Assembly: GCA_965249275.1 (NCBI GenBank)
Contig: CBDFLQ010000007.1
Coordinates: 128,001 to 192,000, forward strand
Direction: 5' to 3'
From: Dehalococcoidia bacterium
Lineage (GTDB): Bacteria; Chloroflexota; Dehalococcoidia; Plut-88900
DNA length: 64,000 nt
In this document: positions 7,713 through 62,475 of the stretch, piece by piece
How the letters are laid out: each line of letters starts with the position of its first letter
Position numbering within the stretch: the first letter of the stretch is position 1
Translations under genes and position numbers: made by a program
Notes under the pieces: model-generated
Seen by the model: the letters and a program-made list of their open reading frames with translations, nothing else
What the model was told of the DNA's origin: nothing
The model's database searches: none

Positions 7713-7746
7713 TGTCATTCCGAGGCTCCGCGGGGAATCTAAGGCG
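7713..7746. repeat. REP-like palindrome (GTCATTCCGAG...GGAATCT family)
   Basis: Recurs at about 27378, 42821 and 45931, and reverse-complemented at 48501, 55645 and 55981. Confidence 0.75.
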
Positions 7747-7828
7747 TATATCGCACCTCTCTACTCCTGTCCTTCGCCAACGAGGACTGAAGAACTGGGG
7801 ACGCCACCCCTCAAGAAAGGACCACACC

Positions 7829-9373
7829 ATGAAATACGACCACATCATAGTAGGCGCAGGCTCCGCCGGAGCGACCCTCGCCGCCCGACTCACCGAAGAC
7901 CCCGACCGCTCCGTCCTCCTCCTCGAAGCCGGCAGCGACTTCCCGGAATTCGAGCGTATTCCTGAAGAGGTTAGGCTGGCCTACGGCGGCAGGACTATTT
8001 ACGACTCCGAGCACATCTGGAACTTCAGCGCTCGCGCAACCTCCAAGGCCCACATGGACATCCCGCGCGGCAAGATCACCGGCGGGTCCAGTTCCGTCAA
8101 CGACGCCCAGTTCCTCCGCGGCGTCCGCGAGGACTACGACCGATGGGCGGAATGGGGCAACGACCAGTGGTCCTTCGACAACGTCTTCCCCTATTTCAAA
8201 CGCATGGAGGCCGACCAGGACTTCCGAGACGAATTCCACGGCAATGACGGCCCCATCATGTGCCGCCGTCATCCCGAGGATGAGTGGCCGCCCCACCAGC
8301 AGGCCTTCTACGAGGCTGCCCGAGACAAGGGCTTCCCACACTGCCCCGACCACAACCGCACCGACAGCACTGGCGTCGGCCCCCTCGCCTTCAACATCAT
8401 AGACCGCGTCCGGATGAGTACCGCCCTCGGCTACCTGAACCCCGCCCGTCACCGACTCAACCTCACCATCCGACCCAATTGCCTGGTCCACGGCATCATA
8501 TTCGATGGCAACCGGGCCGCTGGTCTGCTTGTCATAAGCGGTAAAGAGATGTTTTACGTCTACGCTGATGAGATCACTCTCTGCGCTGGGGCCGTCGGCA
8601 CGCCTCACATTCTCCTCCTCTCCGGGGTCGGGCCCGCCGACCAGCTTGACTCCTTCGGCATTCCCGTTGTCCAGGACCTTCCGGGGGTCGGTCACAACCT
8701 CCGCGACCACCCTTACGTTCCCTTGTGTTACCTGACCAAGCCCGACTACCCCCTGGACCTCCCCACCCCCGCTTCGGGCGCGGTCACCCTACGCTACACC
8801 GCCTCCGGCTCCCCTTTCGTCAACGACATGATCATTTACATGGGCAACTACGCCGCCAGGCGGCCTTCCAGGGGCCTCGATGACAAAGACCCGATCGGTA
8901 TCGGAGTTGGTCCCGCCCTTTACCTGGCCGTCAGCCAGGGCGAGCTCCGACTCCAGTCCACCAACCCCCGACAGCAGCCAGTCCTCGACTACAACCTTCT
9001 CGACGACCCCTTCGACCGTCAACGAATGCGCGAATGCCTCAGGCTCACCGACTCCCTTTTCCAACACTCCGCATTCTCCGACATCGTCGACAGGCGCAAC
9101 GCCCTCTCCGACGAGGCACTCAATGACGACGACCTCCTGGACGACTTCATGCTCCACGAGGTCATGACCGCCCACCACATCTCCAGCACCTGCAAGATGG
9201 GCCCTTCCAGCGATCCCCTAGCCGTCTGTGACCAGTACGGCAAAGTCTACGGTCTCGATGGCCTCCGCATCGTCGACGCCTCCATCATGCCCGACACCGT
9301 CCGTGCCAACCTCAACGTCACCGTAATGACCATGGGCGAAAAAGTCGCCGACTTCATCAAACAGGGTAACTAG
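7829..9373 (+). CDS. GMC oxidoreductase, copy 2 (tandem paralog)
   Basis: Same motifs and colinear with copy 1; ATG 7829 after AAGGA. Confidence 0.9.
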   Translation: MKYDHIIVGAGSAGATLAARLTEDPDRSVLLLEAGSDFPEFERIPEEVRLAYGGRTIYDSEHIWNFSARATSKAHMDIPRGKITGGSSSVNDAQFLRGVREDYDRWAEWGNDQWSFDNVFPYFKRMEADQDFRDEFHGNDGPIMCRRHPEDEWPPHQQAFYEAARDKGFPHCPDHNRTDSTGVGPLAFNIIDRVRMSTALGYLNPARHRLNLTIRPNCLVHGIIFDGNRAAGLLVISGKEMFYVYADEITLCAGAVGTPHILLLSGVGPADQLDSFGIPVVQDLPGVGHNLRDHPYVPLCYLTKPDYPLDLPTPASGAVTLRYTASGSPFVNDMIIYMGNYAARRPSRGLDDKDPIGIGVGPALYLAVSQGELRLQSTNPRQQPVLDYNLLDDPFDRQRMRECLRLTDSLFQHSAFSDIVDRRNALSDEALNDDDLLDDFMLHEVMTAHHISSTCKMGPSSDPLAVCDQYGKVYGLDGLRIVDASIMPDTVRANLNVTVMTMGEKVADFIKQGN

Positions 9374-9407
9374 CTACTATGGCCATTGCGAACCCCATTC
9401 CCCTCAT

Positions 9408-10864
9408 CCCCTCCCCACAAACGGCATCTTCGTAGCCTACCCCCCATTCCGTGCCTAAAACACAGGTGGGGGGTCTCTTGTCCCTAGTATTTCCCTAGAA
9501 ATCATCCCTAGCCCTTTTTGGGCCTTTACGCGAATTGGCCCTCCCCCCGGCGTCCCAAGCCATGCCGCAAATCGTCGAAACCTACAGACGGCGCCGGTCG
9601 GGTTTCGATACCAGGCGGTCGGTCGATGAACGGGGGAGAGGGCCAACTCTCCAAAACAAGGGGAGGGGGCCGCTATCAACTGCCCTCCCCGCGATCATTC
9701 TACACGATAGACCGGCAATCGCGATAGACCGGACAACCTTTTCCCCACCCGCAACCCCGGCATAGGCGGAACAATCAGACGGGGAAAGGTAAACGTTGAT
9801 ATCGCCGCCTTGCTAGCGAGTCTAAACAATGAGCAAGGCAAATGGGATTCTCAGTAATGGGAATGGAGAAAATATGATGGGTTGTACCAGCCGGAAGCAG
9901 GGGGGATTCCCCCATGGGTAGGGATGGGTGGGGCATGTCCTGGGGTATGGAATCCGGTACGGGGCCATACCCCATCCCCTCAACTCCTTCATCTTCAGCT
10001 CCCCAGCCCGTATAGGAGCCAAACGTGCCGGTCACTCCCTGTCACAATCGTCGCGGCCTCTTGTGCAGTGAAAACAAGTCGCGGCAAGGATTGAGTTTGC
10101 TGGCGTGAATCCATACCCGCCATTTTCAGCACTCACCACAGGGTGGGCAATGGCGTCCGCGCACCCGGTTTGCTGAACGTGTCAATATCAGTTGAACAAT
10201 GACGTTAACAACACTGTAACTAGAGAACCTACCGCTGCGCTAACGAGGCTAGTACATACCATTGTCAAAACTGGGCTATTGCGTTTCAGTCTTGCGAGGT
10301 ACCGGTGTTCCAATTCATAAAGCCGGTCTTCGCCCTCGGGCGTTATTCCTTGGGCAGTCAGATTCACAACCTCGCCTCCATTCTTAGTGAAAGGTAGTAA
10401 ATAGCCCGCGTCTACGAGAAACCTAAAGGTGGTGATAAGTTGGTCTATTTCGTGTCTTTTGACGTATGTCCTGTTTAACCATTGCACCCCCTCCGAAGAA
10501 TCCCCGGCGTAAAGCATAATGCTCCCGTGGTCTCTGACTACCCTCAAAATGTCTAGTTCGGTGTTCCTCTTTGGCATAATTCTCTCGACGATTCTCTGCT
10601 GTTCCTAGGTCATTTTTGTCCTGTTCTTCAAAGGGCCCCCCGGAATGGCGTTACCGGAGGGCCTTCTAGGTCTTTTGGTATGCCTAGCTTGTGACCCAAA
10701 GGGGGCAGTCGAAGGGCAAGAATCAATTGCCCCTCAAATTATAATCGCACCCCACACCCCGCTGGCTGATTGAAGCTCACGAGGGGTCGGGCGAGGCTGG
10801 GTTATCATCGAAGATTGCCGAGCAGAAATATTAACCCCTCCCCACAAACGGCATCTTCGTAGCC
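9408..10864. mobile_element. Integrase-less islet bounded by a 30-bp direct repeat of the SDR gene 3' end
   Basis: CCCCTCCCCACAAACGGCATCTTCGTAGCC is identical at 9408-9437 and 10835-10864. Confidence 0.65.
10188..10577 (-). CDS. Hypothetical protein (possible winged-helix N-terminus, C-terminal TM helix)
   Basis: 129-aa ORF, lower GC than its neighbours, ITPEG motif, hydrophobic C-terminal tail. Confidence 0.6.
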   Translation of the reverse strand: MPKRNTELDILRVVRDHGSIMLYAGDSSEGVQWLNRTYVKRHEIDQLITTFRFLVDAGYLLPFTKNGGEVVNLTAQGITPEGEDRLYELEHRYLARLKRNSPVLTMVCTSLVSAAVGSLVTVLLTSLFN

Positions 10865-14045: not shown

Positions 14046-14209
14046 CGTAAGGGCAGGGCAATCCGTTCGCCCTAATGCTCTCGAAGGGTCGAGCGGGGGG
14101 AGCCCGTCAAAGGGTCTACCGAGCAGATTTGGGGGCGGGGTAATCCGTTCGCCCTGAGCCGAGTCGAAGGGTCTCCCGAACGGATGGGTGTGGGGGTACA
14201 AACCCTCCA
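14046..14209. repeat. Cluster of REP-like palindromes (CCGTTCGCCCTGAG...TCGAAGGG family)
   Basis: Two units at about 14063 and 14144 between convergent genes. Confidence 0.7.
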
Positions 14210-15469: not shown

Positions 15470-15770
15470 CCCGCAGGGGCGATTCCCGAATCGCCCTCCC
15501 CCTAACCTCAGCGAAAGTCCACCCTGACAGCTTAAAGAACGCGTGGAATATCGTGGGAGGGGAAGTCCAGTCCCTCCTCCCTCGATTAGACCTTTGCATA
15601 ACCTGTGTAGGAGGGACGTGGGGCCGCTCGTGCCGAGGCTCTCGAAGTATGAGCGGGGGTGTTAGGCGATCTGGACAGAACGACATGTGAGATCTGCAGC
15701 TACACAAAGCTCCCCCGGTCGGCCGCGGGTGCGCCTCTGTCGCGAAGGGATTGAGGGGGAGGGTGTTTCG
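15470..15770. repeat. Mosaic of REP-like repeats
   Basis: GCAGGGGCGATTCCCGAATCGCCC; AGACCTTTGCATAAC end; GGGGCCGCTC...GAGCGGGG unit; 22-bp insertion at 15722-15743. Confidence 0.65.
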
Positions 15771-17399: not shown

Positions 17400-17500
17400 C
17401 TGGGGGTGGTGGGGCCGCTCGTGCTGAGGCTCTCGAAGTATGAGCGGGGGGCTCCTATCCCCTCTTCCTCGACGGGAGAGGACTAGGGTGAGGGTGATCG
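17400..17500. repeat. REP-like pair (GGGGCCGCTC... and CCCTCT...GGGAGAGG..TAGGGTGAGGGTG)
   Basis: Both units recur many times in the window. Confidence 0.7.
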
Positions 17501-18520: not shown

Positions 18521-18521
18521 A

Positions 18522-18682
18522 GAGACCTTTGCATAAAACGTCCCGGAGGTGCCGGGGCCGCTCGTGCTGAGGCTCTCGAAGTATGAGCTGAGGTCCAGTC
18601 CCATCTACCTTGATGGGAGAGGGCTAGGGTGAGGGTGATTCCTGGCTCACAAAATGCACGCTTGAAATTTTGTATAGGTCTC
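18522..18682. mobile_element. MITE-like element with IS5-type ends enclosing REP units
   Basis: GAGACCTTTGCATAA ... TTTTGTATAGGTCTC imperfect terminal inverted repeat; no ORF. Confidence 0.6.
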
Positions 18683-47236: not shown

Positions 47237-47287
47237 TGTACAGACCGGGGACATGGGTTACAGTTGTTCGGGGAGATAGGTAACACA
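47237..47287. mobile_element. Isolated IS481-type end remnant
   Basis: TGTACAGACCGGGGACATGGGTTACA followed by the internal repeat CGGGGAGATAGGTAACA; it truncates a CCCTCTCCCTTGATGGG REP. Confidence 0.55.
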
Positions 47288-47300
47288 TTCTATCGACTTA

Positions 47301-48498: not shown

Positions 48499-48915
48499 TA
48501 GATTCCTCGCGGGGCATCGGAATGACAGGGTTAAGGGGGTTGGAGTGGGGGAGGGGCGGACGCGACGGATCGGCAATGCGTGGACTGCCCCCGCTCGACC
48601 CTTCGACGGAGCTCAGGGTGAGCGGCCCTTCCCCAAGGATGGATTCACGCCTCGGCGCATCTTTGACCGGCTCTCTCGGCAGTCGGAATGGCGGAGGGGG
48701 AGGGAGTCCCGGCTCGGCGGGGGGGTGCGCCTTCAGGAGGGATGGATTCACGCCTTGGCGCATCTGCGACCTGCCTCCGCAGGAAAGACGGATGAGGGGT
48801 GGCAGTGTGGGGCGGTCCCCGCTCGCCCTTCGACCCGCCTCAGCGGACTTACAGCAAGCTCAGGGTGAGCGGCCCCTCACAGGGATGGATTCCGTCTCGG
48901 GGGCCGGAATGACGA
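48499..48915. repeat. REP mosaic with three 21-bp insertions
   Basis: Insertions at 48647-48667, 48750-48770 and 48835-48855; an uninserted unit at about 48887-48914. Confidence 0.75.
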
Positions 48916-48939
48916 GGTTGGAGAGGGAGGCGCGCTGGG

Positions 48940-51900: not shown

Positions 51901-52575
51901 CTTGTCCGCCAGCCGATCGCCGTGCCGGCCACTTTGGCCGTAGGCCTTCAGGGTGGCAAGACCCTGCACACCGTCCAGGAAGTCGGCGCCCAGGGAGCCG
52001 TAGGAGCGGTAGCGGTGCATGCTGCTCTTCTGGTTCCAGCTGTGGAAGACCGCCGGAGCGACGAGGGTGAAGAGGGCGAAGCCGAGGAAGATAAGAGCAA
52101 TGGGCAGGTCCAGGATGGCCATGAATACGAAGATGAGAATCGGGGCGACGGCGGCAATGATGATCTGGGGAAGGTATTGGCCGAAGAAGGTCTCCAGGCC
52201 CTCGACGCCATCGCCGAGGGTGAGGATCACGCCACCTGTGCGACGCTGGTCGAAGTGACCCGGGCCAAGGGCTAGGCAGTGCTGATAAAGATTCTCACGA
52301 ATCTTTATCTTGACGATGTTGGAAGTGTGATGAGCGTAGCTGTTCTGCAGGTATTGGAATACTCCTCGGACGCCGATGAGGATGGCGACGCCGATCATGG
52401 GAAAAGCAAGGGAGGAGTACTCGGCTTGTCCGCGAAAGACCCGGGCGATGACTATGCCGAAGATAGCGAGGCCGGCGACTCCAGCGCCAACGGCAATAAG
52501 CCCCAGCACTGTGGAAAGAAAGATACGGAGCCGAACGCCCTGCGTAAGCTGGAACAGTCTCAGATCGAAGTACAT
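48940..52575 (-). CDS. Fused double ABC exporter (TMD-NBD-TMD-NBD, CydD/CydC-like)
   Basis: Two Walker A motifs (GPSGAGKS, GRSGAGKS), two LSGGQ signatures, two LDEA motifs and two TM domains; start MYFDLRLF. Confidence 0.88.
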   Translation of the reverse strand: MYFDLRLFQLTQGVRLRIFLSTVLGLIAVGAGVAGLAIFGIVIARVFRGQAEYSSLAFPMIGVAILIGVRGVFQYLQNSYAHHTSNIVKIKIRENLYQHCLALGPGHFDQRRTGGVILTLGDGVEGLETFFGQYLPQIIIAAVAPILIFVFMAILDLPIALIFLGFALFTLVAPAVFHSWNQKSSMHRYRSYGSLGADFLDGVQGLATLKAYGQSGRHGDRLADKARALYRSTMGVLAANIATGGVTVLGISAGAAVALGVGAARVSAGDMEIRTLLIVMMFGVEVFRPLRELTQLYHKGMIASAAAQSIFNLMAEPVEIEGPRNTPTPDTPNTAPLAAEIRFENVTFGYNQGRGNALENVSFTLGKGEKLGVAGPSGAGKSTLVWLAYRFFDPQKGRILLGGQDLKDLPLERIREQIAVVTQDTYLFHGTVADNLRFGKGDATQEQLEAAARAANAHEFISELPQGYDTYVGERAIRLSGGQRQRIAIARALLKDAPILILDEALSSVDAENEAVIQEALDRLMQGRTTLIIAHRLSSIVGADRILVLEDSHLVEIGSHDELIAADGIYARLMADQQTAGFASRPANLATVDQLTSAVDGLASPPHEEEPLPAPAALEASYPMGAFTILRRLMTLIVPWWKQQTVTFLLGIAHHGSIIGLGVISALLVGEVFRGGDLTLYLILLAVFAPLTAFFTWAEGWLAHDLAYRLLAEMRIDMYRKMDAIAPAYLVKRRSGDIVGVVGGDIEKIEYFFAHTISPAFVAFVVPLAVLITLALISWPLAIVLLPFLFAVAIRPFYAQKTNERLGDEVLSKLGGIHAQMVDNIQGMREISAFDQGPARTGDIRERGWDFAGSQLKFKKAQESQTSFIESITGLGGLAVLAMGAWLVLEGRMDRPDLPLAALLALSTFSPVSDLARTGKDLMETLAAGRRVFAVHDEPMSVQDGPGVAAPGEVAVPTAPLVRFEGTSFAYGPGLPQAVSDLSFTIEPGQTVALVGRSGAGKSTCAYLLMRFWDPQSGEVSLGNHNLKEFRLDPLRDSIAFVTQDTYLFNASIGDNIALGKFGASQEEIEEAAQQANAHGFVSSFPEGYDTMVGERGMQLSGGQRQRISIARALLKNAPVLILDEATSHLDAVSEHQVRQALNRLMSGRSTVIIAHRLSTVRDADKLIVLDRGRKVEEGSHDELMERNGLYAQLVAAQMVSAAPRPTQQPS

Positions 52576-52821
52576 GAAGCCTCTAGGCCAGTTTGTCGTA
52601 GAAAGAGCCCTGGCGCAAGGGTTGCTAGCCGGGGCTCTGTTCGGTGGATTATACAGTCGGGCACAGAATACGGCAAACGAGGAGCGGTGCGTTGTATTGA
52701 CTCCCCAAGTGGATTCGCTTAGCGTATCCGGCTGTATGTGGGGAGGAGCGACCAGCCGCTCGCCCCTATGGGTTGGAGGTTCACGGAACACAAGCAAGAA
52801 CGGAAAGGGTGCAAGAAGAAT

Positions 52822-53958
52822 ATGAAGGACTACATAGCCGTCGACGTGGACGGTCACATCATGGAGCCACCCGACCTTTTCGAAAATAACCTGGAACCGA
52901 AGTATCGGGACCGGGCCTATAAGCTCGTGTTGGACGACCAAGGGGTCGAGCACCCGGTTATGGACAACATATGGCTGGACGATACGAGGCCGGTGGGCAC
53001 AGTGTCGGTGTACGGCGCTGTTGACAAGCCCATGGAGGACTACCTGGCGGGGAAGGTGCACTACCGGGACTCGATGGTCCCGGGGGCATGGGTGCCGGAT
53101 GAAAGGCTCAAGGTGATGGACGAGGAGGGGATCGATATTGCGTTGTTCTACCCGTCGCTAGGTCTGGACTGGGAGAGCTCCAGCGACGACGCCGACCTCG
53201 TGGCGGCCCACTGCCGGGTGTACAACGACTGGCTGATCGACTTCTGCAGCACCGATCCCAGCCGACTAGTGCCGATAGCTCACGTGTCTTTCATGGATGT
53301 CGAGCAGGCGGTGGCGGAGACCAGGCGGGTGGCAGATCTTGGGGCGAAGGGACTGATGTTACTTGCGTTTCCGCCAAGAAAGGGTCAGCCGTATGGCGAG
53401 CCGGAGTTCGACCCGATATGGTCGGAAGCCGAAAGCCTCGGGCTGCCTGTCGGGGTACATGTTCACGGGGGCGGGACCCGATTTGGCGGTGATTATTTCT
53501 ACCCGCACCCCTGGAAGGCGTCTTGGTGGTGGTGGTTCGTCACGGCAGCGAAGTTTGTGGTGGACTCGATGACCTCGCTGTTCCAGGGAGGTCTTTTCGA
53601 CAGGTTCCCAAACCTTCAGGTGATCGCGTTGGAGGCAGGCTGCGGCTGGCTGGCCTACTGGCTGGAGCGGATGGACGAATATTTCGAAAGGTACGGCTTC
53701 GAGACGTCGATGCAGCTTAAGCCGAGCGAATACTTCAATCGACAATGCTGGATATCGATGGAGCCCAGCGAGAAGATTGGCCTTACGATGATGCAGCTTC
53801 TCGGGGCCGACCGGTTCCTCTGGGCTTCCGATTACCCCCACTCCGATGCAGAGATGGGGACCGTGGCACAACTGAAGAAGAACCTTGCCCCCCTTCCGGA
53901 TGCGGAGTTCCGAAAGATACTGGGGGAGAATGCGGTCAAGCTGTATCAGCTTGGGTGA
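52822..53958 (+). CDS. Amidohydrolase_2 family protein
   Basis: DVDGHIMEP, YNDW, EAGCGW, SDYPHSD; paralog of 11708-12859. Confidence 0.9.
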   Translation: MKDYIAVDVDGHIMEPPDLFENNLEPKYRDRAYKLVLDDQGVEHPVMDNIWLDDTRPVGTVSVYGAVDKPMEDYLAGKVHYRDSMVPGAWVPDERLKVMDEEGIDIALFYPSLGLDWESSSDDADLVAAHCRVYNDWLIDFCSTDPSRLVPIAHVSFMDVEQAVAETRRVADLGAKGLMLLAFPPRKGQPYGEPEFDPIWSEAESLGLPVGVHVHGGGTRFGGDYFYPHPWKASWWWWFVTAAKFVVDSMTSLFQGGLFDRFPNLQVIALEAGCGWLAYWLERMDEYFERYGFETSMQLKPSEYFNRQCWISMEPSEKIGLTMMQLLGADRFLWASDYPHSDAEMGTVAQLKKNLAPLPDAEFRKILGENAVKLYQLG

Positions 53959-54106
53959 TTTTACATAATGCGTCGATGGGCGGTCTATGGCGAGGGTGGG
54001 ATGAGTGATTTTGTGAGGGACTTCGTTACATAAAGTGCGCGTTTGTCTTTTGGGATACATCCTCACTCTCTTCAGCGAGTCTTCGACCCTAGCCCTTTCC
54101 CGTCAA

Positions 54107-54421
54107 GAGAGCTTTGCACAACTACAGGTTGCCTCTGCTGTACTGTCCGGATCACGTAACCTCCACCCCCCGCTCATACTTCGAGAGCCTCAGCACGAGC
54201 GGCCCCGGCCCCACCGCGGGAGGTTAGGCAAAAATCTCATCAAGGGAGAGGGGATGGAACGCTCGCACATCATTCAGTTCTTGGGATCCCCTTCGAGAGC
54301 CTCAGGACAGGCTTCGACTTCGCTAACGCCACGGCGCATCTTCGACAGGGCGAGCGGAATACCCCGCCCCTGGGGATGGAGCCCGACTCGGGAGCAGAAA
54401 TGTCGGTTATGCAAGGGTCTC
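54107..54421. mobile_element. MITE-like element (GAGA[G/C]CTTTGCA ends) filled with REP units
   Basis: GAGAGCTTTGCACAAC ... GTTATGCAAGGGTCTC; insertion at 54326-54346. Confidence 0.6.
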
Positions 54422-54464
54422 ATACCGGAAACACAATGCGGGCTCATGCTGGAAAGGTGAATCG

Positions 54465-55385
54465 ATGCCAAAGATTGGACTGGTAGGGCTGGGAGTTATC
54501 GGGCGGATATACGCTGCCAACCTGACAAGGACTTTCGGGCCGATATATGTCTATGACAGCGTTCGGGAGCGGATGGCGGCAGTAGAGAAGCTGGGGGCTC
54601 TGGCGTCGGAGAGTGGGGCGGACTTGGCGAGGTTGTCGGAGGTGGTGTTGCTGGCGCTGCCAAACCCCGAAGCGGTGAGGGCGGCGGTAGATGGGAAGGA
54701 TGGCGTGTTAGAGGGGGCTCGGCCAGGGACAGTCATTGTGGACCTGAGCACCATTGACCCGAAGACTGCCATTGAGATGTATGCTTGGGCGAAGGAGCGG
54801 GGTGTTGACTACCTGGACTCTCCGATAAGCGGGGGGCAGCCAGGTGGGGCGGGCACCGACGGGGCGAAGGCGGCCAACGTAACCTTCATGGTGAGCGGGG
54901 ACCGAGGCGCATTCGAGAAGGCAAAGCCTGTGATGGAAGCGCTCGGCGAGAAGTTCTTCTTTCTGGGGGAGGCAGGGACGGGGACGAAGGTAAAGCTGCT
55001 GAGCAACTTCGTTAGTGGGATGGTCAACTTGATCTCGGCGGAAGCGTTTGCTCTCGGGGCGGCGGCGGGCATCGATGCGAAGACCCTGATGGACGTGTTT
55101 GACGAGACGGACGCCGACTGCTACTTCATGCAGAACTATGTCCGGCCGAGAATCGAGCGGGGTGATTTCGAGCCGGGCTTCTCGGTTGACCTGCAGTACA
55201 AGGACTTGAAGCTGACCAGCGAATGGAGCAGGGAGGAGGGGGTTCCCACCCCCATCAATGACCTGGGCGTGCAGCTATACCAGATGGCTCGGGCGGCGGG
55301 GCTGGGGCATAAGGACCTGGTGGAGTCGGTGAATTATTGGGCGCGGGTGTCGGGGGTGGAGTTGGTAACGGGTGACAGGGCTTGA
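54465..55385 (+). CDS. 3-hydroxyisobutyrate/beta-hydroxyacid dehydrogenase family protein
   Basis: GLVGLGVIG, DLSTIDP, DSPISGG, KLLSN, KDL. Confidence 0.88.
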   Translation: MPKIGLVGLGVIGRIYAANLTRTFGPIYVYDSVRERMAAVEKLGALASESGADLARLSEVVLLALPNPEAVRAAVDGKDGVLEGARPGTVIVDLSTIDPKTAIEMYAWAKERGVDYLDSPISGGQPGGAGTDGAKAANVTFMVSGDRGAFEKAKPVMEALGEKFFFLGEAGTGTKVKLLSNFVSGMVNLISAEAFALGAAAGIDAKTLMDVFDETDADCYFMQNYVRPRIERGDFEPGFSVDLQYKDLKLTSEWSREEGVPTPINDLGVQLYQMARAAGLGHKDLVESVNYWARVSGVELVTGDRA

Positions 55386-55399
55386 GCGCAGGCTCTAGC

Positions 55400-56110
55400 A
55401 CGCCGCTCATACTTCGATGCTTCATAGGCGGACTTGCAGCGGGCTAAGTATGAGCGGCCCCGCCTCCGGAGACTGGATTCACGCCATGGCGCACGCCAAA
55501 GGCGCATCCTCCCGAGGCGGACGTTCCGCTTGCAGCATCTTCGACCGGCTCGGAGGCCGAAATGACGGAGAGGGAGGGGCAGGATGAGGGTGTTTTAGGG
55601 GTGGGAGTCGTAGGGATGTACGTCCGGTAGGGATATATGCCTTAGGTTCCTCGCGGGGCATCGGAATGGCATGGTTGGGGTGGTGGGTTGGCGAAGAAGT
55701 TTCGCGGTGGACGCTTGTGCAACTCCGGGTTGGGGCGGAAACGCCCTGCCCATTCCGCTCTTGAGACCCTTCGACTCGGCTTACGCTATGGCGCATCTTC
55801 GACAGGGCGAGCGGAATGCCCCGCCTTTGGGGAGGTATTCACGCCTCGGCGCACGCCAAAGGCGCACTTTCAGCATCTTCGACCGGCTCGGAGGCCGGAA
55901 TGACGGAGAGGTAGGGGCAGGATGAAAAGGTTTTAGTGGTGGAGAGCGATATGGGTACGACTACTAGGGACATGCGCCTTAGATTCCTCGCGGAGCCTCG
56001 GAATGACAATGATTAGGGTGGTGGGTTGGGGGCGGAGGGACGTGACAGATTGGCAGTGCGTGGACTCCCCCCGCTCATACTTCGACGGGCTCAGCACGAG
56101 CGGCCCCGCC
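55400..56110. repeat. Large REP mosaic with an internal ~200-bp duplication and nested insertions
   Basis: About 55476-55690 resembles about 55836-56030; insertions at 55418, 55481-55545, 55783 and 55841-55883. Confidence 0.78.
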
Positions 56111-57256
56111 TCAGGACAGGCCGTAGAGGCGGGCGCAGTTGTCCCAGAGGATCTTTCGCAGGCTGTCGTGGGGGAAATCGAGGGTGAGTAGCATCTCCAC
56201 GGACTTGGGGTAGCGGCTGTCGGGGTGGGGGTAGTCGGTGGAAAAGACAATGTTGTCATCGCCAAGCCAGTCGATGGCATACTTGCCGGGCGCTTCGTCG
56301 GCCTCGACGGAGGTGAAGCACTGGCGTTTGAAGTACTCGGAGGGCATGAGGGGCAGCCTATCCTTGAGAATCGACTCCCTGTGCTCGTAGTGCTCGTCCA
56401 TGCGCCAGATCCAGAACGGCGACCAGCTGCAATTCCCTTCGAGGAAAGCGAACCTTAGAGTTGGAAATCTCTGGGTGACGCCCCCCATGATGATCGCGAG
56501 GCAGGCGTACATCTGCTCTATGGGATGGGCGGCCAGGTGCTCGGTAGTCCAGAGGTTTTCGTGGTTGCCGTCGAAACGTTCTCCCATAGCAACAGGAAGC
56601 TCACAGGGAGTGCCTTCGTGGAAACCGACGGCGAGGTCGAATGCCTGGCACTCGGCCCAAAGAGGGTCATAGTAGGGGTGGTTCCAGTTGCGGCCCTGGA
56701 CGGGGTTGGGGCGCAGGAATACGCCCTTGAAGCCGAAGTCCTGGGCCACGCGTCGGGTCTCCGCAATGGCGGCGTCTATATTCTGGGCAGGGACCATGCC
56801 CGAACCGAACATCCTCTTGGAGTCGCCCTGGCAGAACTCGGCGAGCCAGTCATTGTAGGCGCGCGATATGGCTGCTGCCAGCTGATCATCGTCGTAGACC
56901 TTGGCGTGGGCGAAGAGGCCCATGGAAGGGAAAAGCAAGGCCAGGTCTATCCCCTCAGCGTCCATGGCCTCGACCTGGGTGTCGGGGCCCCAGCCCCGGT
57001 CCTGGAAGGCGAGGAATTCATCGAACCTGCCGTAGCGCTTGGCTAATTCGACGTACATTTCCCCTTCGTCGGCGAAGTTGTCCTGATTGCGGGCGATGAC
57101 TCTACCATCGTGCTTGAGACGAAGGTCCATGAAGTACTCTTCCGCACCTACGGGGGCGAGGTCACGGAACTCGGGTGAGATGTAGGTCTGCCAGAGGTCG
57201 GCGGGCTCCATGACGTGCATGTCGCTGTCGATGACCTTGAAACCGTCCTTAGCCAT
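56111..57256 (-). CDS. Amidohydrolase_2 family protein
   Basis: DSDMHVMEP, YNDW, FHE, EGNCSW, TDYPHPD. Confidence 0.9.
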   Translation of the reverse strand: MAKDGFKVIDSDMHVMEPADLWQTYISPEFRDLAPVGAEEYFMDLRLKHDGRVIARNQDNFADEGEMYVELAKRYGRFDEFLAFQDRGWGPDTQVEAMDAEGIDLALLFPSMGLFAHAKVYDDDQLAAAISRAYNDWLAEFCQGDSKRMFGSGMVPAQNIDAAIAETRRVAQDFGFKGVFLRPNPVQGRNWNHPYYDPLWAECQAFDLAVGFHEGTPCELPVAMGERFDGNHENLWTTEHLAAHPIEQMYACLAIIMGGVTQRFPTLRFAFLEGNCSWSPFWIWRMDEHYEHRESILKDRLPLMPSEYFKRQCFTSVEADEAPGKYAIDWLGDDNIVFSTDYPHPDSRYPKSVEMLLTLDFPHDSLRKILWDNCARLYGLS

Positions 57257-57299
57257 TGCGGTGCCCTCCTTCGGGCTGGGGGTCTTTTGCAAGCCAGTA

Positions 57300-57475
57300 T
57301 CACTCTCTCGCGCCTCGGCGAGACTACGGCCTCAGCCCTCTCGCGCCTCGGCGCATCTCCGACCCATCGAGATATCTTTGCGTAACTGCTGATCACGCTA
57401 GTGGTGCCATCCAGGTTACCTGACGTCCCTCCCCCGCTCATACTTCGAGAGCCTCAGCACGAGCGGCCCCGGCCC
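57300..57475. repeat. REP mosaic with two 21-bp insertions
   Basis: Insertions at 57310-57330 and 57343-57363; REP unit at 57431-57470. Confidence 0.7.
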
Positions 57476-57523
57476 CTCCGGCAGGCAGAGGTTTCCTTAG
57501 TGCATTGTCCACCTTGGGCGTGG

Positions 57524-58138
57524 CTACTGCAACGGGTTGAAACGCATTGCGAGGCGAGGAAGCCAGTTACACGGGCGGTCGGGGAGGGGTCCTCGGACGA
57601 TTTCGAAGCCGGCGCGTTTGAAGAGGGGCTCGGTTCCGAAAAAGATATTGTCGGCGCCGGTGCGCTCGTTTCCGGCTCGGGGGTAGGCCTCCACGACAGG
57701 AGCGCCGTACTCGAATGCATATCGAGCCGCTGCCCGAATAAGGGCCACGGCGACGCCCTGGCCGCGTGCATTCCTGTGGACGGTCACGCAAGGGATAACC
57801 CAGACATCCTGATCGTCCACCCTGGGTGTGGCCCGGGACTTCTCGATGCGAGCAAGCTCGCTCCGGGGGGCGACGGCAACCCAGCCCACGGGGTCTTCTC
57901 CCTGGAAGGCGAGGAGGCCCGGAGCGTAAGAGCGTCGGGCCAGGTCTTCCATAGCTGCACGGCGGCGCTGAGAGCCGGACCCTTCGCCGGGGAGCTTCTT
58001 CCATTGGGCGCCTGGGATACGAGGGAACATGCACCAGCAGGTACTGCCCCAGCTTCCCCGGAGGACTGTCCTCATGCTGTCCAACAGGTCGGGGGTCAGG
58101 GGTCTGATGTCCAGAGTAGATGTCCCGGTAGTAGTCAT
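57524..58138 (-). CDS. GNAT family N-acetyltransferase
   Basis: CWCM, PVGWVAVAPR, RGQGVA, VEAYP, FKRAGF. Confidence 0.88.
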   Translation of the reverse strand: MTTTGTSTLDIRPLTPDLLDSMRTVLRGSWGSTCWCMFPRIPGAQWKKLPGEGSGSQRRRAAMEDLARRSYAPGLLAFQGEDPVGWVAVAPRSELARIEKSRATPRVDDQDVWVIPCVTVHRNARGQGVAVALIRAAARYAFEYGAPVVEAYPRAGNERTGADNIFFGTEPLFKRAGFEIVRGPLPDRPCNWLPRLAMRFNPLQ

Positions 58139-58323
58139 AAGCTGATTACCCCCTGACTGCAAGTCTATATGGCCAAATCAGGATTAGGATGCGAAAGTAT
58201 CCCGCGTAAGGATAACAGGTAAAAAAGCCCGGTTTGACCTATGGGTAACAAGGGGCCCGAAGCGTTGGGGTGGGGGCTTAGAAGTTACCGATCGGGAGGG
58301 GGCCTATGGCCTTGCGACCGTGG

Positions 58324-58587
58324 CTACCAGCGGGGGCGGCGGGGCTCTTTGGGTCGGGCCCGGTCTACGGTAAGGGGTCTGCCCTTGAGCTCTTTACCAT
58401 TCAGGCCTTGAACCGCAGCTTCACCTTCGCGCTCGTCAGTCATCTCGACGAAACCGAAACCGCGTGAGCGGCCGGAATAGGGGTCGGTGATCACGCGTGC
58501 CGAGTCGACAGTGCCGAAGGGGTCGAAAGCTTCTTTCAACTCCTCATCGGTCAGACTATAGGGAAGGTTGCCGACGAAAATGTTCAT
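58324..58587 (-). CDS. RRM RNA-binding protein
   Basis: IFVGNL and RGFGFVEM. Confidence 0.95.
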   Translation of the reverse strand: MNIFVGNLPYSLTDEELKEAFDPFGTVDSARVITDPYSGRSRGFGFVEMTDEREGEAAVQGLNGKELKGRPLTVDRARPKEPRRPRW

Positions 58588-58927
58588 GAACAGGTCCTCC
58601 AGGGCCAAGTATCTCCTGCTTCGAAACCCCTATCTTCCAAGCTGGAAGCAAGCGTTTACTACGCCCTTTCGGGGATACCGAAGATGGGGAGCATTCTACC
58701 ATACAAAAGATAAATGCAACTACCAGAACACATTGTTACGCATTTCCCAAAGACTCTTACATAAGGTGTATTTAAGGGCTTAGCCAGCGAGTGGAGCAGG
58801 GGCAACGTTGGGAAACAATGCGTCCCGTTTGCCGGCAGTCGTATAATCACCAGAACTCCTTGGAAGGGCGACCGTCGCCCTTCCGGAACATCAAAGAGAC
58901 CGCCGGGGAATTGGGGGATATTGGGTC

Positions 58928-59308
58928 ATGGGCGCGCGGCGTCAACTTATCGACGTAACTTATTCGTTCTTAGTCGCGCTAGGGATTGCGGTGATTATGA
59001 TTATGATCGTCACCGCGTTCCAGGACCGGCCCGACCTGGATGACGAGACACGGGAGCGGGTAGGGTTTCTTCTGCTGTTCCCGGTGTCTATTGCGATAAT
59101 AACGGGGACGATAGGCTTCGGGCTGTCGCTGATAAATTGGAGGGAATGGCGCCTGTTGATACTGGCGTTCCTGGGGGTGATAAGCCTAGTAAATGCAATA
59201 CTTGACGTATCGAACGCGCTTACCTATTTTGGCGTATCGATTTTCCTAGTGTTCGGAATGTATTTTGCCGTGGAGTGGTTCGGGGTCCGGCGTCGGCGCA
59301 GGGTCTAA
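58928..59308 (+). CDS. Hypothetical 4-TM membrane protein
   Basis: 126-aa ORF with four hydrophobic segments and a basic C-terminal tail. Confidence 0.65.
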   Translation: MGARRQLIDVTYSFLVALGIAVIMIMIVTAFQDRPDLDDETRERVGFLLLFPVSIAIITGTIGFGLSLINWREWRLLILAFLGVISLVNAILDVSNALTYFGVSIFLVFGMYFAVEWFGVRRRRRV

Positions 59309-59316
59309 GGCCGGGC

Positions 59317-59946
59317 CTAAGCCCGGAAGGCGAGCATAAGACCATCCCGCAGGGTAAGCAGAACGTTGTTGACCCGGGGGTCATTGGTAACGTAATCGTT
59401 CAAGGCGTTTATGGCCTTATCGCTCTCATCTTTCGGGTCCAAAACCTTCCCTCCCCACAGGGTGTTGTCCACTGCGATCACGCCTCTGGGCGCCAGCAAG
59501 TCGATGCATTTTACATAATAGTTCAGGTAGTTGGTCTTGTCGGCATCGATGAAGACGAGGTCGAAGGGGCCTTGGAGGGTGTCGATAGTGTCGAGAGCGG
59601 GGCCGACTCTTAGGTCGATCTTCTTGCCGTGGGGTGTCTTGGCGAAGAACTCGCGGGCCAGGGATCGAGGGGCTATGTCGCAGGTTATGAGTTCACCGTC
59701 CTCCGGGAGAGCATGTGCCATCATGAGGGCGCTGAATCCTGTGAAGGTGCCAATTTCCAGGACTCGCTTGGCTCCGGAAACTCGGATGAGTGCCTGGAGG
59801 AGGGTGCCGATGAGGCGGTCGGAAAGCATTTCGGCGTCGGGTGCCGAGTTGTAGGTCGCCTTTCTGAGTTCCTCCATGACTGGGGGGAGGGGGGTGGTGT
59901 GGTCGAAGGCGTAGTCGTCGATTTCTCGGGGGACGATGCCGATCAT
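59317..59946 (-). CDS. Class I SAM-dependent O-methyltransferase (caffeoyl-CoA OMT-like)
   Basis: LEIGTFTGFS, FIDADK, DNTLW, RDGL. Confidence 0.92.
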   Translation of the reverse strand: MIGIVPREIDDYAFDHTTPLPPVMEELRKATYNSAPDAEMLSDRLIGTLLQALIRVSGAKRVLEIGTFTGFSALMMAHALPEDGELITCDIAPRSLAREFFAKTPHGKKIDLRVGPALDTIDTLQGPFDLVFIDADKTNYLNYYVKCIDLLAPRGVIAVDNTLWGGKVLDPKDESDKAINALNDYVTNDPRVNNVLLTLRDGLMLAFRA

Positions 59947-59980
59947 GGATTACTCCTGTGGGGGGTGGGGGTCAATGGGT

Positions 59981-61114
59981 TTAGTTGAACCGGGGTATGA
60001 CCTGCTCGGTGAAGAGGGTTAGGCTTCGCATCACCTGCTGGAAGCTTAGCCCCGGGAAATTCAGGAAGAGGGCGATGTGCTGGCAGTTGAGCTCTGTGCG
60101 GTAGCGTTCGATCTGTTCTGCTACCGAGTCCGGGGTGCCGACCATTATGAGGTCGTGCTTCCTCTGGAAGTCGAACCAGTCCAGGTCTAAATCGCCGTCT
60201 TCTATTTCTCCCTCTATAAACGAATCTCTGGATGCCTTCATCGGGTCGCGCTTGTTCCACACGCCGAGCATGTTGGCCCCCGGCCTGACGGCCTCTAAGG
60301 CTTCTTCCATGGTGTCGGCGACGTAGGTGGCGATCATCACGGAGAGCTTATCGCCGAAGTTGTTCTCTTCGCCTCTCGCTTCCTTAGCGGCGTCGTAATA
60401 GGTGTTCCAGATTTCCCTTATCTTGCCGAGGGAGACGGTCTGGCACATGGTGGATATGCCTCGTCTGCCGGCCAACTTGTGGGAACTGTTGGAGGTTGAC
60501 ATCTGAAAGATGGGTGGGTGGGGTTTCTGGACAGGCTTGGGGTGTACGCCGAGAGCGACCATCTCGCCATCGTCGGCGTGGTAACGGGGGTCTCGGACCC
60601 ATTCGTTGGGTTCGTGCCAGCCGGGTTCAGGGAAAGTAAAGTGGTTGCCCTGATATTGGAAAGCTTCCTGTTTCCAGGCGTCTATGATGACATCCAAGGC
60701 CTCGTTGAAGAACTCGGAGTTGACCTTGGGGTTTCGCCGGTCTCCCGCCGAACTGAACTGGGCGGAGGCCCGGGTGTCGAAGCCACGGGCGATGCCGAAG
60801 TCGACACGGCCGTCAGTGAAATTGTCCAGGAGCGCGATGTCCTCCGCGACGCGCAGGGGATGCCAGTCGGGGAGGATGGTGCCGCACTGGCCGATTCTGA
60901 GGTGGTCGCTGTTCTTGATCAGGCCCGCGCCCATGAGAATGGGGTTGGGGGAGGCGCGGTACCAGCCGTCCCAGGCGAAGTGGTGCTCGGCGAGCCAGAG
61001 GCCTGTGAAGCCTCCCTGGTCGATGAGCTTAACCTCCTGGTGCATCTCGTCCATCAGGGTGTCCCAGGAATACTGCTCTCCGACGTGATAGTAGGGTGTG
61101 CAATCGAACCTCAT
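59981..61114 (-). CDS. LLM oxidoreductase (tandem paralog)
   Basis: WLAEHHFAWDGW, HPLRVAED, GRVDFGIARG. Confidence 0.92.
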   Translation of the reverse strand: MRFDCTPYYHVGEQYSWDTLMDEMHQEVKLIDQGGFTGLWLAEHHFAWDGWYRASPNPILMGAGLIKNSDHLRIGQCGTILPDWHPLRVAEDIALLDNFTDGRVDFGIARGFDTRASAQFSSAGDRRNPKVNSEFFNEALDVIIDAWKQEAFQYQGNHFTFPEPGWHEPNEWVRDPRYHADDGEMVALGVHPKPVQKPHPPIFQMSTSNSSHKLAGRRGISTMCQTVSLGKIREIWNTYYDAAKEARGEENNFGDKLSVMIATYVADTMEEALEAVRPGANMLGVWNKRDPMKASRDSFIEGEIEDGDLDLDWFDFQRKHDLIMVGTPDSVAEQIERYRTELNCQHIALFLNFPGLSFQQVMRSLTLFTEQVIPRFN

Positions 61115-61212
61115 TTGTCACCTCGTGTCTGGTCTGGGGTGGATGATCTTTGAAGAGTCCGAATCACCCTCACCCTAGCCCTCTCTCGTCAAGGGATAGG
61201 GGACTATTTTTG

Positions 61213-62346
61213 TTAAGCGAACTTGGGGATGATGCGGTCGGAGAAGAGGTGGAGGGAGTTCATGACCTGCTGGAATGATAGGCCGGGGAAGTTGAGGAAA
61301 AGGGCGATGTGCTGGCAGCGGGTCTTTGATTGGATGCGCTCAATCTGCTCGGAAACCGAGTCAGGTGAGCCGACCATGATCAGGTCGTGCTTGAGCTGGA
61401 AGTCGAACCAGTCGGAATCCAGGTCTCCTTCTTCCATCTCCTCTTCGATCAGTGTGGCCTGCCGAGCCTTGTGAGGGTTTACCGACGACCAGGCAGCGAG
61501 GCGGTTGGCACCGGGCCGCACGGCTTGAACTGCCTCTTCGTAGGTCTCGGCGAGGAAGGTTGGGCGCATGACGGCGACGCCCTCTCCGGTAGGGACGGGA
61601 CGCCCAAGCCTCCCGGAGGCTGCCTCGTTGTGGGCGGCGAAGGCCTCGTTGATTCTACCGGGGGACAGGGAGGCGCACATGGCGCTGTAACCCTTCTCTC
61701 CCGCGTAGCCGAAGGAGCCGACGGTTTCGGCCATGATGTAGACGGGAGGCCGGGGTTGTTGGTAGGGGCGGGGTGTGACGCCGAGGGCGATCAACTCACC
61801 GTCATCGGCGTGGTACTTGGGATCCCGAACCAGGGGGTTGGACTCATACCAGCCGGGTGTCGGGTAGGTGTAGAACTCGCCCTTGTAGGAAAAGGCGTCG
61901 TTTTCCAGGGCCTTGACTATGATTTCGAGGGCTTCTCGGAAGAGGGCGCGGTTGTGTTCCGGGTCTCGGCGGTCGGCTTCCTTGAAAAACTGGATGGTGG
62001 AGCGGGTGTTGATTCCCCGCCCTGCGCCGAAGTCGACGCGGCCCTTTGTCAGCTGGTCCAGGATGGCGATGTCCTCGGCGACGCGGATGGGGTTCCAGTC
62101 GGGGATGATGGTGCCGCACTGGCCGACACGCATCCTGTCGCTTTCGGCAATGAGGTCAGCGCCGACGAGGATGGGGTCGGTCGGGGCACGGTACCAGCCG
62201 TCCCAGGCGAAATGGTGCTCAGCGAGCCAGAGACCGGTGAAGCCGCCCTGGTCCATAAGGCGCACTTCTTCCCGCATCTCGCGGACCAAGGTCTGCCAGG
62301 AATAGTCCTCGCCGACGTGATAGTAGGGTGTGCTGTCGAACCTCAT
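61213..62346 (-). CDS. LLM oxidoreductase (tandem paralog)
   Basis: MRFDSTPYYH start; same motifs as its neighbours. Confidence 0.92.
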   Translation of the reverse strand: MRFDSTPYYHVGEDYSWQTLVREMREEVRLMDQGGFTGLWLAEHHFAWDGWYRAPTDPILVGADLIAESDRMRVGQCGTIIPDWNPIRVAEDIAILDQLTKGRVDFGAGRGINTRSTIQFFKEADRRDPEHNRALFREALEIIVKALENDAFSYKGEFYTYPTPGWYESNPLVRDPKYHADDGELIALGVTPRPYQQPRPPVYIMAETVGSFGYAGEKGYSAMCASLSPGRINEAFAAHNEAASGRLGRPVPTGEGVAVMRPTFLAETYEEAVQAVRPGANRLAAWSSVNPHKARQATLIEEEMEEGDLDSDWFDFQLKHDLIMVGSPDSVSEQIERIQSKTRCQHIALFLNFPGLSFQQVMNSLHLFSDRIIPKFA

Positions 62347-62414
62347 ATTCAACCTATTGCCGGGACTAGGAGCGCTGCCTAACGTTAAGTCTGCGGAGCT
62401 TTAAGGGATGGGAA

Positions 62415-62475
62415 TCACCCTCACCCTAACCCTCTCACGCCTCGGCGCATCTACGACCCGTCAAGGGAGAGGGGA
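62415..62475. repeat. TCACCCTCACCCT..CCCTCTCCC..AAGGGAGAGGG REP with a 21-bp insertion
   Basis: Insertion at 62437-62457; an uninserted sister unit at about 61164-61202. Confidence 0.75.

Follow-up and report, generated by a model that had tools for sequence, protein, structure and literature searches.

What fixes the orientation of short intergenic repeats, and what does its reversal at a single point mark? The question was raised by a window of 64,000 nt from a Dehalococcoidia bacterium (GCA_965249275.1, contig CBDFLQ010000007.1, positions 128,001 to 192,000), for which an earlier note had described strand-polarised repeats that flip together at 47.3-48.5 kb. The spread of REP-like repeats is still unsettled. 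Here, about ten unrelated hairpin families were near-fully locked to replication direction in genomes without a detectable Y1 transposase. Such locking makes direct testing possible in a natural system, and polarity without Y1 points to another enzyme or a host pathway. We favour, with somewhat better than even confidence, an explanation in which mobile hairpins carry a replication-fixed orientation set at insertion by a fork-coupled single-strand process, the flip in the window being an insertion sequence (IS) inversion.

Orientation switch and the IS5-bounded inversion

Repeats were located with family HMMs and by word matches allowing ≤1 mismatch (Table 1). By family HMMs, all 26 hits left of the IS (7.7-47.2 kb) had one orientation and all 18 hits to its right (48.5-62.5 kb) had the opposite one, with 0 exceptions among the 44 hits. 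The switch lay between 47237 and 48496, spanning the IS. GC skew in the window changed sign at 48 kb, from negative on the left to positive on the right. The word GTCATTCCGAG gave 7 window matches (≤1 mismatch) against 1.45 expected, five of them on the plus strand at 7714-45932 and two on the minus strand at 48516 and 55997. At the same stringency, GGGGCCGCTC was not enriched by itself (18 matches against 13 expected; 18 reached in 9 of 100 shuffles); all 11 plus-strand matches lay at or left of 45850 and all 7 minus-strand matches at or right of 46319. The flip was therefore real, and every repeat position listed previously was recovered.

Table 1. Repeats, insertion sequence and inverted block, in window positions
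Feature	Position	Strand	Basis
Family B hairpin repeat, solo	7709..7747	+	word match and family HMMs
A2/F16-type repeats, two units	14063..14192	+	family HMMs
Family A repeat	15615..15659	+	word match and family HMMs
A then C (hairpin and G-rich tail)	17407..17499	+	family HMMs
A then C	18549..18641	+	family HMMs
F16-type (A2-like) repeat	22317..22393	+	family HMMs
Family C repeat	23381..23423	+	family HMMs
Family A2 repeat	25708..25759	+	family HMMs
A2 then B	27280..27411	+	family HMMs
Family A2 repeat	41786..41839	+	family HMMs
F16-type repeat then B	42727..42854	+	family HMMs
Mosaic A - B - C; 21-nt micro-element within 3' arm of C	45846..46033	+	
C-type 5' arm fragment; final repeat in left orientation	47213..47237	+	family HMMs
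IS5-family insertion sequence; left boundary of 72.7-kb inversion	47299..48501	-	
Mosaic B, A2, two micro-elements, A2; adjoins IS end; first right-orientation repeats	48496..48878	-	
Window share of inverted block C7:176.5-249.2 kb, positive GC skew	48502..64000	.	synteny
C-like, A, C 5' arm	54058..54260	-	family HMMs
A-type repeat	55403..55466	-	word match and family HMMs
Mosaic B, F16, B, A	55637..56112	-	family HMMs
F23 (C with micro-insertion), micro-element, A	57299..57475	-	family HMMs
Family C repeat	61161..61204	-	family HMMs
C with micro-element	62412..62476	-	family HMMs

The IS at the switch contains an IS5-family transposase ORF at 47470-48423 (DDE_Tnp_1 and DUF772). A second IS5-family copy, inverted and 100% identical, was found beyond the window at C7:249207-250411. 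The block C7:176.5-249.2 kb, with about 40 repeat hits inside, is collinear but reversed in the relatives G002 and G005. The flip in the window is passive: recent recombination between inverted IS5-family copies inverted 72.7 kb. This inversion is specific to this genome; G002 and G005 are without it, and IS copies at its ends were not found in the sampled syntenic regions of both. On inverting, the segment took its skew and its repeats along. A replication origin or terminus at the flip was also considered, and was rejected on the basis of the identical inverted copies and the gene order of the relatives. In rearranged genomes the repeats document past replication direction alongside GC skew and independently of it, and their orientation makes inversions such as that of the window easy to detect and to order.

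As a separate observation, a family B element adjoined 5 of 11 IS5 copies.

Polarity across the genome and in complete relatives

The repeats comprise about ten families of non-coding, hairpin-forming mobile elements of 21-60 nt confined to one Dehalococcoidia genus, and were present in 9/9 genus genomes, G000 included. Copy number was 92-152 hits per family, with 95-99% outside called genes. Of 311 loci of the short hairpin families, 258 were oriented against the local GC-skew sign (concordant) and 10 with it (discordant); the remaining loci were undefined (41) or mixed (2). The polarity described for the window thus holds genome-wide. For the four families defined by the earlier note, hits opposing the skew sign numbered 88/92, 137/148, 145/152 and 104/111 genome-wide, and families built de novo gave orientation splits such as 74:1, 118:6, 2:57, 52:2 and 32:0. 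Most discordant hits lay within small co-inverted blocks. Discordant or mixed loci carried dnaK-grpE, a MerR regulator, a glycosylase, an acyl-CoA dehydrogenase and an rve transposase.

The claim that all families are polarised was too strong, since not every family followed the pattern of the short hairpins. Modules of a 0.7-kb element were concordant at 52 and discordant at 14 loci, and IS ends and coding repeats were close to 50:50. The internal controls were DDE IS families (5:6, 4:4 and 1:5), coding repeats (8:8 and 19:25) and one repeat resembling an IS end (11:11); skew-linked orientation bias was absent in the DDE insertion sequences and intragenic repeats. Repeat density rose with |skew| (Spearman 0.44), and GC skew was flat to 30 kb away from repeats.

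Replication direction was followed in two complete, single-contig relatives, G001 and G005, using dnaA as a marker. Skew turned from negative to positive at dnaA in both (at 3.18 Mb in G001). Among the matches listed for family B in G001 (100 of 129), orientation was plus in 53/54 at 1.53-3.13 Mb and minus in 26/26 at 0.78-1.20 Mb. All 12 of the 20-kb samples of this genome with repeats and |skew| ≥0.06 were fully concordant (94/94 hits). In G005, family B was plus in 29/29 at 2.33-2.73 Mb and minus in 34/40 at 0.77-2.30 Mb; at 513-533 kb, skew was near zero and repeat orientation mixed. Both genomes hold inverted blocks larger than 72.7 kb. Since both orientation and skew change over at dnaA and once more roughly opposite it in the two relatives, polarity follows replication. 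The comparison of orientation with GC skew proposed in the earlier note therefore had a positive outcome, and every family keeps one orientation with respect to chromosome replication, whose direction is given by GC skew and, in the relatives, by dnaA. The family B strand reading GTCATTCCGAGG sits on the C-rich strand, that is, the nascent-lagging strand and leading-strand template.

GC skew itself has the usual sign, is regional and depends on the strand. Grouped by coding strand, genes had a GC3 skew of -0.37 (C-rich strand) and +0.15 (G-rich strand), and the G-rich strand carries the 16S gene, L16 and rpoC. The G-rich repeat strand had been reported to sit on the C-rich genome strand; this applied to A, A2, C, F15, F16 and F23, and not to family B, of neutral composition (-0.02), or to F09 and F02, which are C-rich on the C-rich strand. 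The composition rules of the families disagree, in line with the original view that base composition does not explain polarity. Gene direction was similarly without influence, as had been proposed: with home-made, crude gene calls (G000 is 87% complete), the skew rule held in each of the four flanking-gene contexts, at 92-97%. Neither gene direction nor the G/C content of the repeats themselves governs polarity.

Element ends and enzyme search

The orthologous site of the 45846..46033 mosaic, an intergenic region, differed in content across seven genus genomes. At least six lineage-specific hairpin indels of 21-22 nt were found, with exact ends. Junction ambiguity was ≤1 nt, so target-site duplication was absent. 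The clean 21-22-nt indels were in canonical orientation in 6/6 cases, and polarity was apparently equally strong for 21-nt elements. From one species to the next, elements come and go, their ends exact and no target duplicated. The clean ends fit single-strand cut-and-join better than DDE transposition; what differs in presence between genomes could also reflect exact deletion instead of insertion. IS200/IS605-type elements have a fixed tetra- or pentanucleotide target 5' of the insertion; here the few candidate insertion sites read ..CTG^AGG.., ..GGG^AGA.. and ..CCA^ACT.., and several were within other repeats. In the micro-element, G-(A/T/C)-A-G stands 2 nt upstream of a hairpin with a 5-bp stem, a REP-like layout. 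In REPs, a conserved GTAG/GTGG stands at the 5' foot of the hairpin. The G-N-A-G tag was absent from families A, B and C.

Like DDE-mobilised TIR-type MITEs such as Correia elements, the repeats are small and non-coding, lie between genes in many copies and are nested. They differ from these in their clean indels without target-site duplication, and the genome's own DDE IS families are unpolarised; the sole TIR-like element here, of 0.7 kb, was the least polarised (79%).

Nine genus genomes, six of them single-contig, were searched with domain profiles. Y1_Tnp (PF01797, RAYT/IS200-type HUH) was found in 0/9 at E up to 0.01, with the control positive in 6/14 known genomes. Y2_Tnp was found in 0/9, but its control was silent everywhere too, which makes this result uninformative. 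A TnpB-type domain was over the cut-off in 1/9 genomes, RT in 3/9 and IS110 in 4/9; none of the three was found in G000 and none co-occurred with the repeats. At discordant or mixed loci, no REPtron (a gene between oppositely oriented repeats) was found.

Proposed fork-coupled spread and rival explanations

Under the favoured explanation, new copies would be joined to, or copied from, a single one of the replication fork's two template strands. Polarity would be set on insertion of each element, because copies would use only one of these strands. The process would be a single-strand mechanism like the 'peel and paste' of IS200/IS605, with an enzyme other than a detectable Y1 HUH transposase. 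Fork-coupled single-strand spread, as the earlier note had it, agrees with polarity that tracks replication and with the clean ends; the mechanism itself we infer. Against it stand the lack of a matching enzyme in the searches above and a strand dependence of folding that is partial, being present in A, F16 and F23, missing in B and C and opposite in F09. More tentatively, it is possible that an undescribed HUH-independent machinery copies hairpins of 21-60 nt, which nest in each other's stems and loops, into one fork template strand, giving the fullest replichore polarity yet observed for a repeat class. Integron attC sites are imperfect hairpins that recombine in a folded, single-stranded form; they show a choice of strand, and an orientation relative to replication is reported for them. 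They form arrays with cassettes beside an integrase, whereas the present repeats are dispersed, much shorter and cassette-less.

The data accommodate biased insertion as well as orientation-dependent retention, and no insertion younger than an inversion was encountered. In the latter, which we consider unlikely, insertion orientation would be random and one orientation would be lost, either because a hairpin or G-quadruplex is harmful on the lagging-strand template or because the element is a useful polar site like Chi or KOPS. Such polar motifs are a well-established feature of chromosomes, and Chi, KOPS and architecture-imparting sequences likewise show replication strand polarity, reversed on passing the origin or the terminus. 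The consensus of family C contains four G3 runs fitting a G-quadruplex motif, on the leading-strand-template strand. For families A, F16 and F23, folding is 1-2 kcal/mol better for the repeat strand placed on the C-rich genome strand, and less stable for the one that forms the lagging-strand template. Both features suit retention, as does the climb of repeat density with |skew|, and the mixed zone of G005 fits it and the insertion model equally. Retention would, however, require orientation-dependent fitness in each of about ten unrelated families, and their properties clash: on the C-rich strand, A is G-rich, F09 C-rich and B neutral, and B and C fold alike on both strands. Blocks with dozens of wrong-way repeats persist in every genome examined, and tolerance of such blocks argues against strong selection on each copy. 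Chi/KOPS-type motifs are roughly 8-nt words, mostly intragenic and conserved in function, unlike these hairpin insertions, which are intergenic only and variable between species.

It is quite improbable that the repeats are REPs or IS200/IS605-type miniatures mobilised by a RAYT/TnpA Y1 HUH transposase that works on the template of the lagging strand. According to the excerpted text of PMC5027513, IS200/IS605 members prefer the lagging-strand template for insertion and excision and show genomic orientation bias; IS608, ISDra2 and their miniatures share with the present repeats a replication-tied orientation switching at origin and terminus, hairpin ends and the absence of target-site duplication. 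REP, BIME and REPIN sequences are also short extragenic palindromes with hundreds of copies, mosaic nested clusters and genus or species specificity, and the layout of the micro-element is like that of a REP. Against this, the earlier suggestion of a Y1 driver is weakened by the lack of PF01797 matches in all nine genus genomes, with a control that detected it elsewhere, and the TnpB-type domain was over the cut-off in one genome only. Compared with IS200/IS605, the repeats are shorter, gene-less, spread over unrelated families and near-absolute in polarity. Compared with REPs, units within clusters are co-oriented rather than paired head-to-head as in REPINs and BIMEs, mixed loci are rare, and neither a RAYT gene nor a REPtron was found. 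The tetranucleotide of the micro-element has one variable position (A, T or C), and families A, B and C lack the tag. No replichore polarity is reported in the excerpts of the REP literature considered (PMC3333891, PMC6006769, PMC3733652, PMC3116915, PMC2718517).

Selection against rearrangement, whereby inverted copies within a replichore promote harmful inversions and co-oriented copies survive, is very improbable. The pattern it predicts was seen, with direct copies within and inverted copies between replichores. Elements of 21-60 nt are, however, near or below the length usual for efficient homologous recombination, and the documented inversion used 1.2-kb IS copies that are themselves unpolarised. 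Inversions are evidently tolerated, direct repeats would promote deletions equally, and the 21-nt elements are apparently as polarised as the others.

That transcription sets the orientation, through terminators or mRNA-stabilising hairpins, with the replication link only apparent, is scarcely credible and was refuted by the flanking-gene context analysis: although convergent contexts modestly outnumbered divergent ones (129 vs 90), as for REPs elsewhere in the excerpted text of PMC3733652, orientation relative to tandem flanking genes was 147 vs 122, the home-made gene calls gave no gene-strand bias to tie transcription to skew (246 plus and 208 minus in positive-skew regions; 534 plus and 532 minus in negative-skew regions), and the skew rule held in every context.

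Repeat orientation and GC skew in the window and across the genome

The studied Dehalococcoidia genome (G000) comprised 2.90 Mb in 7 contigs and was 87% complete. In the window, the 2-kb bins up to 48 kb nearly all had a + strand GC skew between -0.03 and -0.26, the 42-44 kb bin being at +0.04, and the 2-kb bins beyond had one between +0.07 and +0.18. All repeats listed in the earlier note were recovered in the window. The flip that it had described was reproduced with family HMMs, which gave one orientation for 26/26 copies at 7.7-47.2 kb and the other for 18/18 at 48.5-62.5 kb. The switch fell between 47237 and 48496, spanning an insertion sequence (IS) that encodes a DDE_Tnp_1/DUF772 (IS5-family) transposase. 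Rfam gave 0 matches within the window.

Profiles built from the window copies of hairpin families A, A2, B and C were searched genome-wide, and local skew was computed over ±10 kb with repeats masked. Copies numbered 92 (A), 148 (A2), 152 (B) and 111 (C), of which 88, 137, 145 and 104, respectively, were oriented opposite to the sign of local GC skew (concordant). De novo families were obtained from 12-mer seeds and HMMs; single-linkage clustering of intervals had merged 818 into one component. About fifteen polarised modules resulted (e.g. 74:1, 118:6, 2:57, 37:0, 32:0, 52:2, 24:1 and 2:28), together with three unpolarised controls from the same procedure (gene-internal repeats, 8:8 and 19:25; an IS-end-like repeat, 11:11). 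The modules made up roughly ten independent units, often solo (B alone 67 times, A alone 31 times) and also found in variable mosaics of co-oriented units.

Short hairpin families occupied 311 loci, with 258 concordant, 10 discordant, 2 mixed and 41 of undefined skew. Discordant short repeats were mostly grouped in small blocks, and isolated wrong-way elements amounted to ~1%. Polarity was weaker for a 0.7-kb non-coding element (52 concordant, 14 discordant and 19 undefined among 85 loci) consisting of module F24 and, ~0.5-0.7 kb from it, F19-F13-F06-F08. Three multi-copy DDE IS families of the same genome split 5:6, 4:4 and 1:5.

Repeats were sparse in weak-skew regions (1.7 per 20 kb versus 5.8 at |skew| of at least 0.12; Spearman 0.44), and this low density might be due to age, to selection acting on core genes or to the history of replication. 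One small block with an hspR-like MerR regulator, grpE and dnaK carried repeats opposite to those around it, suggestive of a heat-shock operon that was inverted locally.

By home-made, crude gene calls, on which all gene-strand and flanking-gene counts rest, genes showed no strand bias in positive-skew (246 +, 208 -) or negative-skew (534 +, 532 -) regions. Each of the four arrangements of flanking genes contained repeats (147, 129, 90 and 122 matches), with the skew rule kept by 92-97% in each. Transcription-linked orientation was therefore ruled out, as the earlier note had argued. The same note had placed the G-rich repeat strand on the C-rich genome strand; this was found for A, A2, C and modules F15, F16 and F23, but B is of neutral composition, and F09, F02 and the 0.7-kb element have their C-rich strand there. 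As families differ in the G/C content of the same-side strand, composition-driven orientation was also ruled out.

GC3 skew was -0.37 for 628 C-rich-strand genes and +0.15 for 654 G-rich-strand genes of G000, and AT skew was nearly absent at third positions of the same genes. It is unusual for a strong GC3 skew to be combined with so little AT3 skew and with no gene-strand bias that could be detected. At distances of 0.5 to 30 kb from repeats, skew stayed level and is thus regional, not hairpin-made; local hairpin-induced skew was ruled out. The 16S gene, L16 and rpoC were all on the G-rich strand, and the sole 16S rRNA gene found lay exactly at a negative-to-positive skew flip. On another contig, dnaA adjoined a small reversed-polarity patch, as is seen beside dnaA in the relative G005.

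The window switch and the replication origin in relatives

The window IS is one of 11 full-length copies in G000 (identity at least 99.3%). A second copy, inverted and 100% identical to this one (C7:175.3-176.5 kb, +), lies at C7:249.2-250.4 kb. In two relatives of the same genus, G002 and G005 (~92% identical here), the DNA homologous to C7:176.8-247.1 kb is reversed, and this block joins directly to the sequences that lie next to the IS pair in G000; sampling of 160 kb per relative revealed no copy of the IS. The inverted identical pair and the reversed block together indicate a recent 72.7-kb inversion in G000 between the two IS copies, before which the whole of C7:80-720 kb was of negative skew and a single repeat orientation. 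An origin or terminus at the window flip was ruled out by the same synteny and IS pair, and the flip is, as judged from these alignments, an inversion breakpoint. By synteny, the window lies ~0.13-0.27 Mb from a terminus-type switch of G005.

In five of the 11 IS5-family copies, the same IS end directly borders a family-B repeat, with blast alignments continuing into B. Some IS types target REPs, and the pattern here suggests that this IS likewise inserts beside B elements or within them.

Family B was present in 59-139 copies in 8/8 other genomes of the genus, and only 0-1 times in each of 22 genomes searched from other genera (20 families of the class). In the relative G001 (one contig, 3.26 Mb; dnaA at 3.18 Mb), skew changed from -0.14 (3.14 Mb) to +0.13 (3.23 Mb); the 1.0-1.3 Mb stretch was positive and the 1.6-3.14 Mb stretch negative. 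Among the 100 B matches listed, of 129 in all, orientation was + in 53/54 at 1.53-3.13 Mb, - in 26/26 at 0.78-1.20 Mb and in mixed blocks at 0.1-0.74 Mb. All 94 repeat matches in twelve repeat-holding 20-kb samples (|skew| at least 0.06) kept the rule; four weak-skew samples split 14 to 5.

Both the skew and the repeat orientation of G005 (3.15 Mb) flipped within 646.5-657.7 kb, around dnaA at 652 kb. B copies were - in 34/40 at 0.77-2.30 Mb and + in 29/29 at 2.33-2.73 Mb, the second orientation switch lying near the point opposite dnaA. Two + copies of B in the large - block, considered as possible post-inversion insertions that might tell biased insertion from selection, were situated in a sub-block with its own inverted skew or in a near-zero-skew zone. 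Skew and repeats were both inverted in a ~550-kb block (3.12 Mb through 0 to 0.52 Mb). At the edge of this block is a 20-kb zone of near-zero skew with repeats alternating at sub-kb spacing, possibly a place where forks have long met or where small rearrangements are clustered.

The earlier note had proposed that orientation plotted against skew should invert at origin and terminus. This was borne out in G005, by inversion at dnaA and near the opposite point, and in G001, where orientation follows skew and skew flips at dnaA. From these switches, the polarity follows the replichores with the usual sign, and superimposed on it are inversions that move skew and repeats together.

Anatomy of the elements and enzyme searches

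The repeat units form imperfect hairpins. For A, F16 and F23, the repeat strand on the C-rich genome strand has the more stable fold, by 1-2 kcal/mol, and B and C show no folding difference between strands. The 3' half of family C contains four G3 runs with 3-nt spacing, a textbook G-quadruplex motif, on the leading-strand template.

At the site orthologous to window 45.8-46.0 kb, module sets differed among seven genomes of the genus. Most repeats were common to G000, G002 and G005 over the ~150 kb compared. In the same comparison, one micro-element (consensus TCG-W/C-AGAT-S-CGCC...GGCG-K-G) accounted for at least six lineage-specific indels of 21-22 nt, with exact ends, no target duplication and a junction ambiguity of 1 nt or less; six of six were in the canonical orientation. 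Further copies of the micro-element lie in the loop of A and, in C and B'-type hairpins, within the 3' arm. This anatomy and these differences, each of which may be an insertion or a precise deletion, fit single-strand cut-and-join better than DDE transposition.

PF01797, PF04986, PF07282, PF00078 and PF01548 were searched in 9 genomes of the genus, six of them single-contig. The Y1 HUH transposase (PF01797) was found in 0/9, G000 included, with a positive control in 6/14 genomes; Y2_Tnp was likewise found in 0/9, its own control also being without any match. Matches above cut-off were obtained for a TnpB-type domain in 1/9, RT in 3/9 and IS110 in 4/9, none of them in G000. None of these distributions corresponds to that of the repeats, which are universal in the genus. 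Multi-copy genes of G000 and genes at discordant loci were also typed. No candidate enzyme co-occurring with the repeats emerged from the domain searches, multi-copy genes or discordant-locus genes, and no REPtron-like gene (flanked by oppositely oriented repeats) was present at discordant loci.

Origin of the polarity

Many unrelated small hairpin families of this genus show near-absolute replication-linked polarity that is independent of genes and composition, conserved across the genus and passively carried by inversions. This polarity was probably fixed at insertion, by a process that would use one template strand only at the replication fork, because many unrelated families are polarised, the elements that are smallest and changed most recently are polarised too, DDE elements of the same genome are not, and large wrong-orientation blocks are tolerated. 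The main rival, that elements are retained or function according to their orientation, is a possible but rather unlikely account. Mobilisation specifically by RAYT/HUH enzymes is very improbable, because a defining feature of it was looked for and not found.

Insertion at the fork as proposed here is analogous to the fork-strand-specific insertion of IS200/IS605, as described in PMC5027513. Passages of PMC3333891, PMC6006769, PMC3733652, PMC3116915 and PMC2718517 discuss REP/BIME/REPIN elements in terms of their flanking genes and of RAYTs, and these passages report no replichore polarity of such elements. No report of replichore-polarised REP-like repeats was found by full-text searches in a collection from which most subscription journals are absent. 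The present elements are REP/MITE-like and their polarity is IS200/IS605-like, but the known enzyme was not found (PF01797, 0/9).

Locations of individual features (window coordinates, or contig positions in G000 unless stated)
Feature	Location	Remark
IS copies adjoining B	window 48496-48529; C5:341.2k; C6:295.9k; C7:682.2k; C7:901.4k	
Family C copies with G3 runs	window 17470-17497; 18611-18638; 23393-23420	
0.7-kb element, examples	C7:556114-556823; C7:585532-586195; C6:732639-733277	
Weak-skew, repeat-poor regions	C6:530-650k; C7:0-110k; C7:730-1070k	ribosomal protein and rpoC loci included
Heat-shock gene block	C7:348.9-355.3k	
16S rRNA gene	C7:727339-728936	
dnaA	C5:162k	
Alternating-repeat zone	G005:C1:513001-533000	
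Four tandem paralogous genes	window 59981-64000	~1.2 kb each
Tandem paralogue pair	window 6099-9373	1.6 kb

The window also contains two sets of tandem paralogues, the larger with 63-81% DNA identity. A gene-internal repeat family related to them (F25) showed no polarity. Amidohydro_2 paralogues of high identity (85% or more) were found elsewhere in G000.
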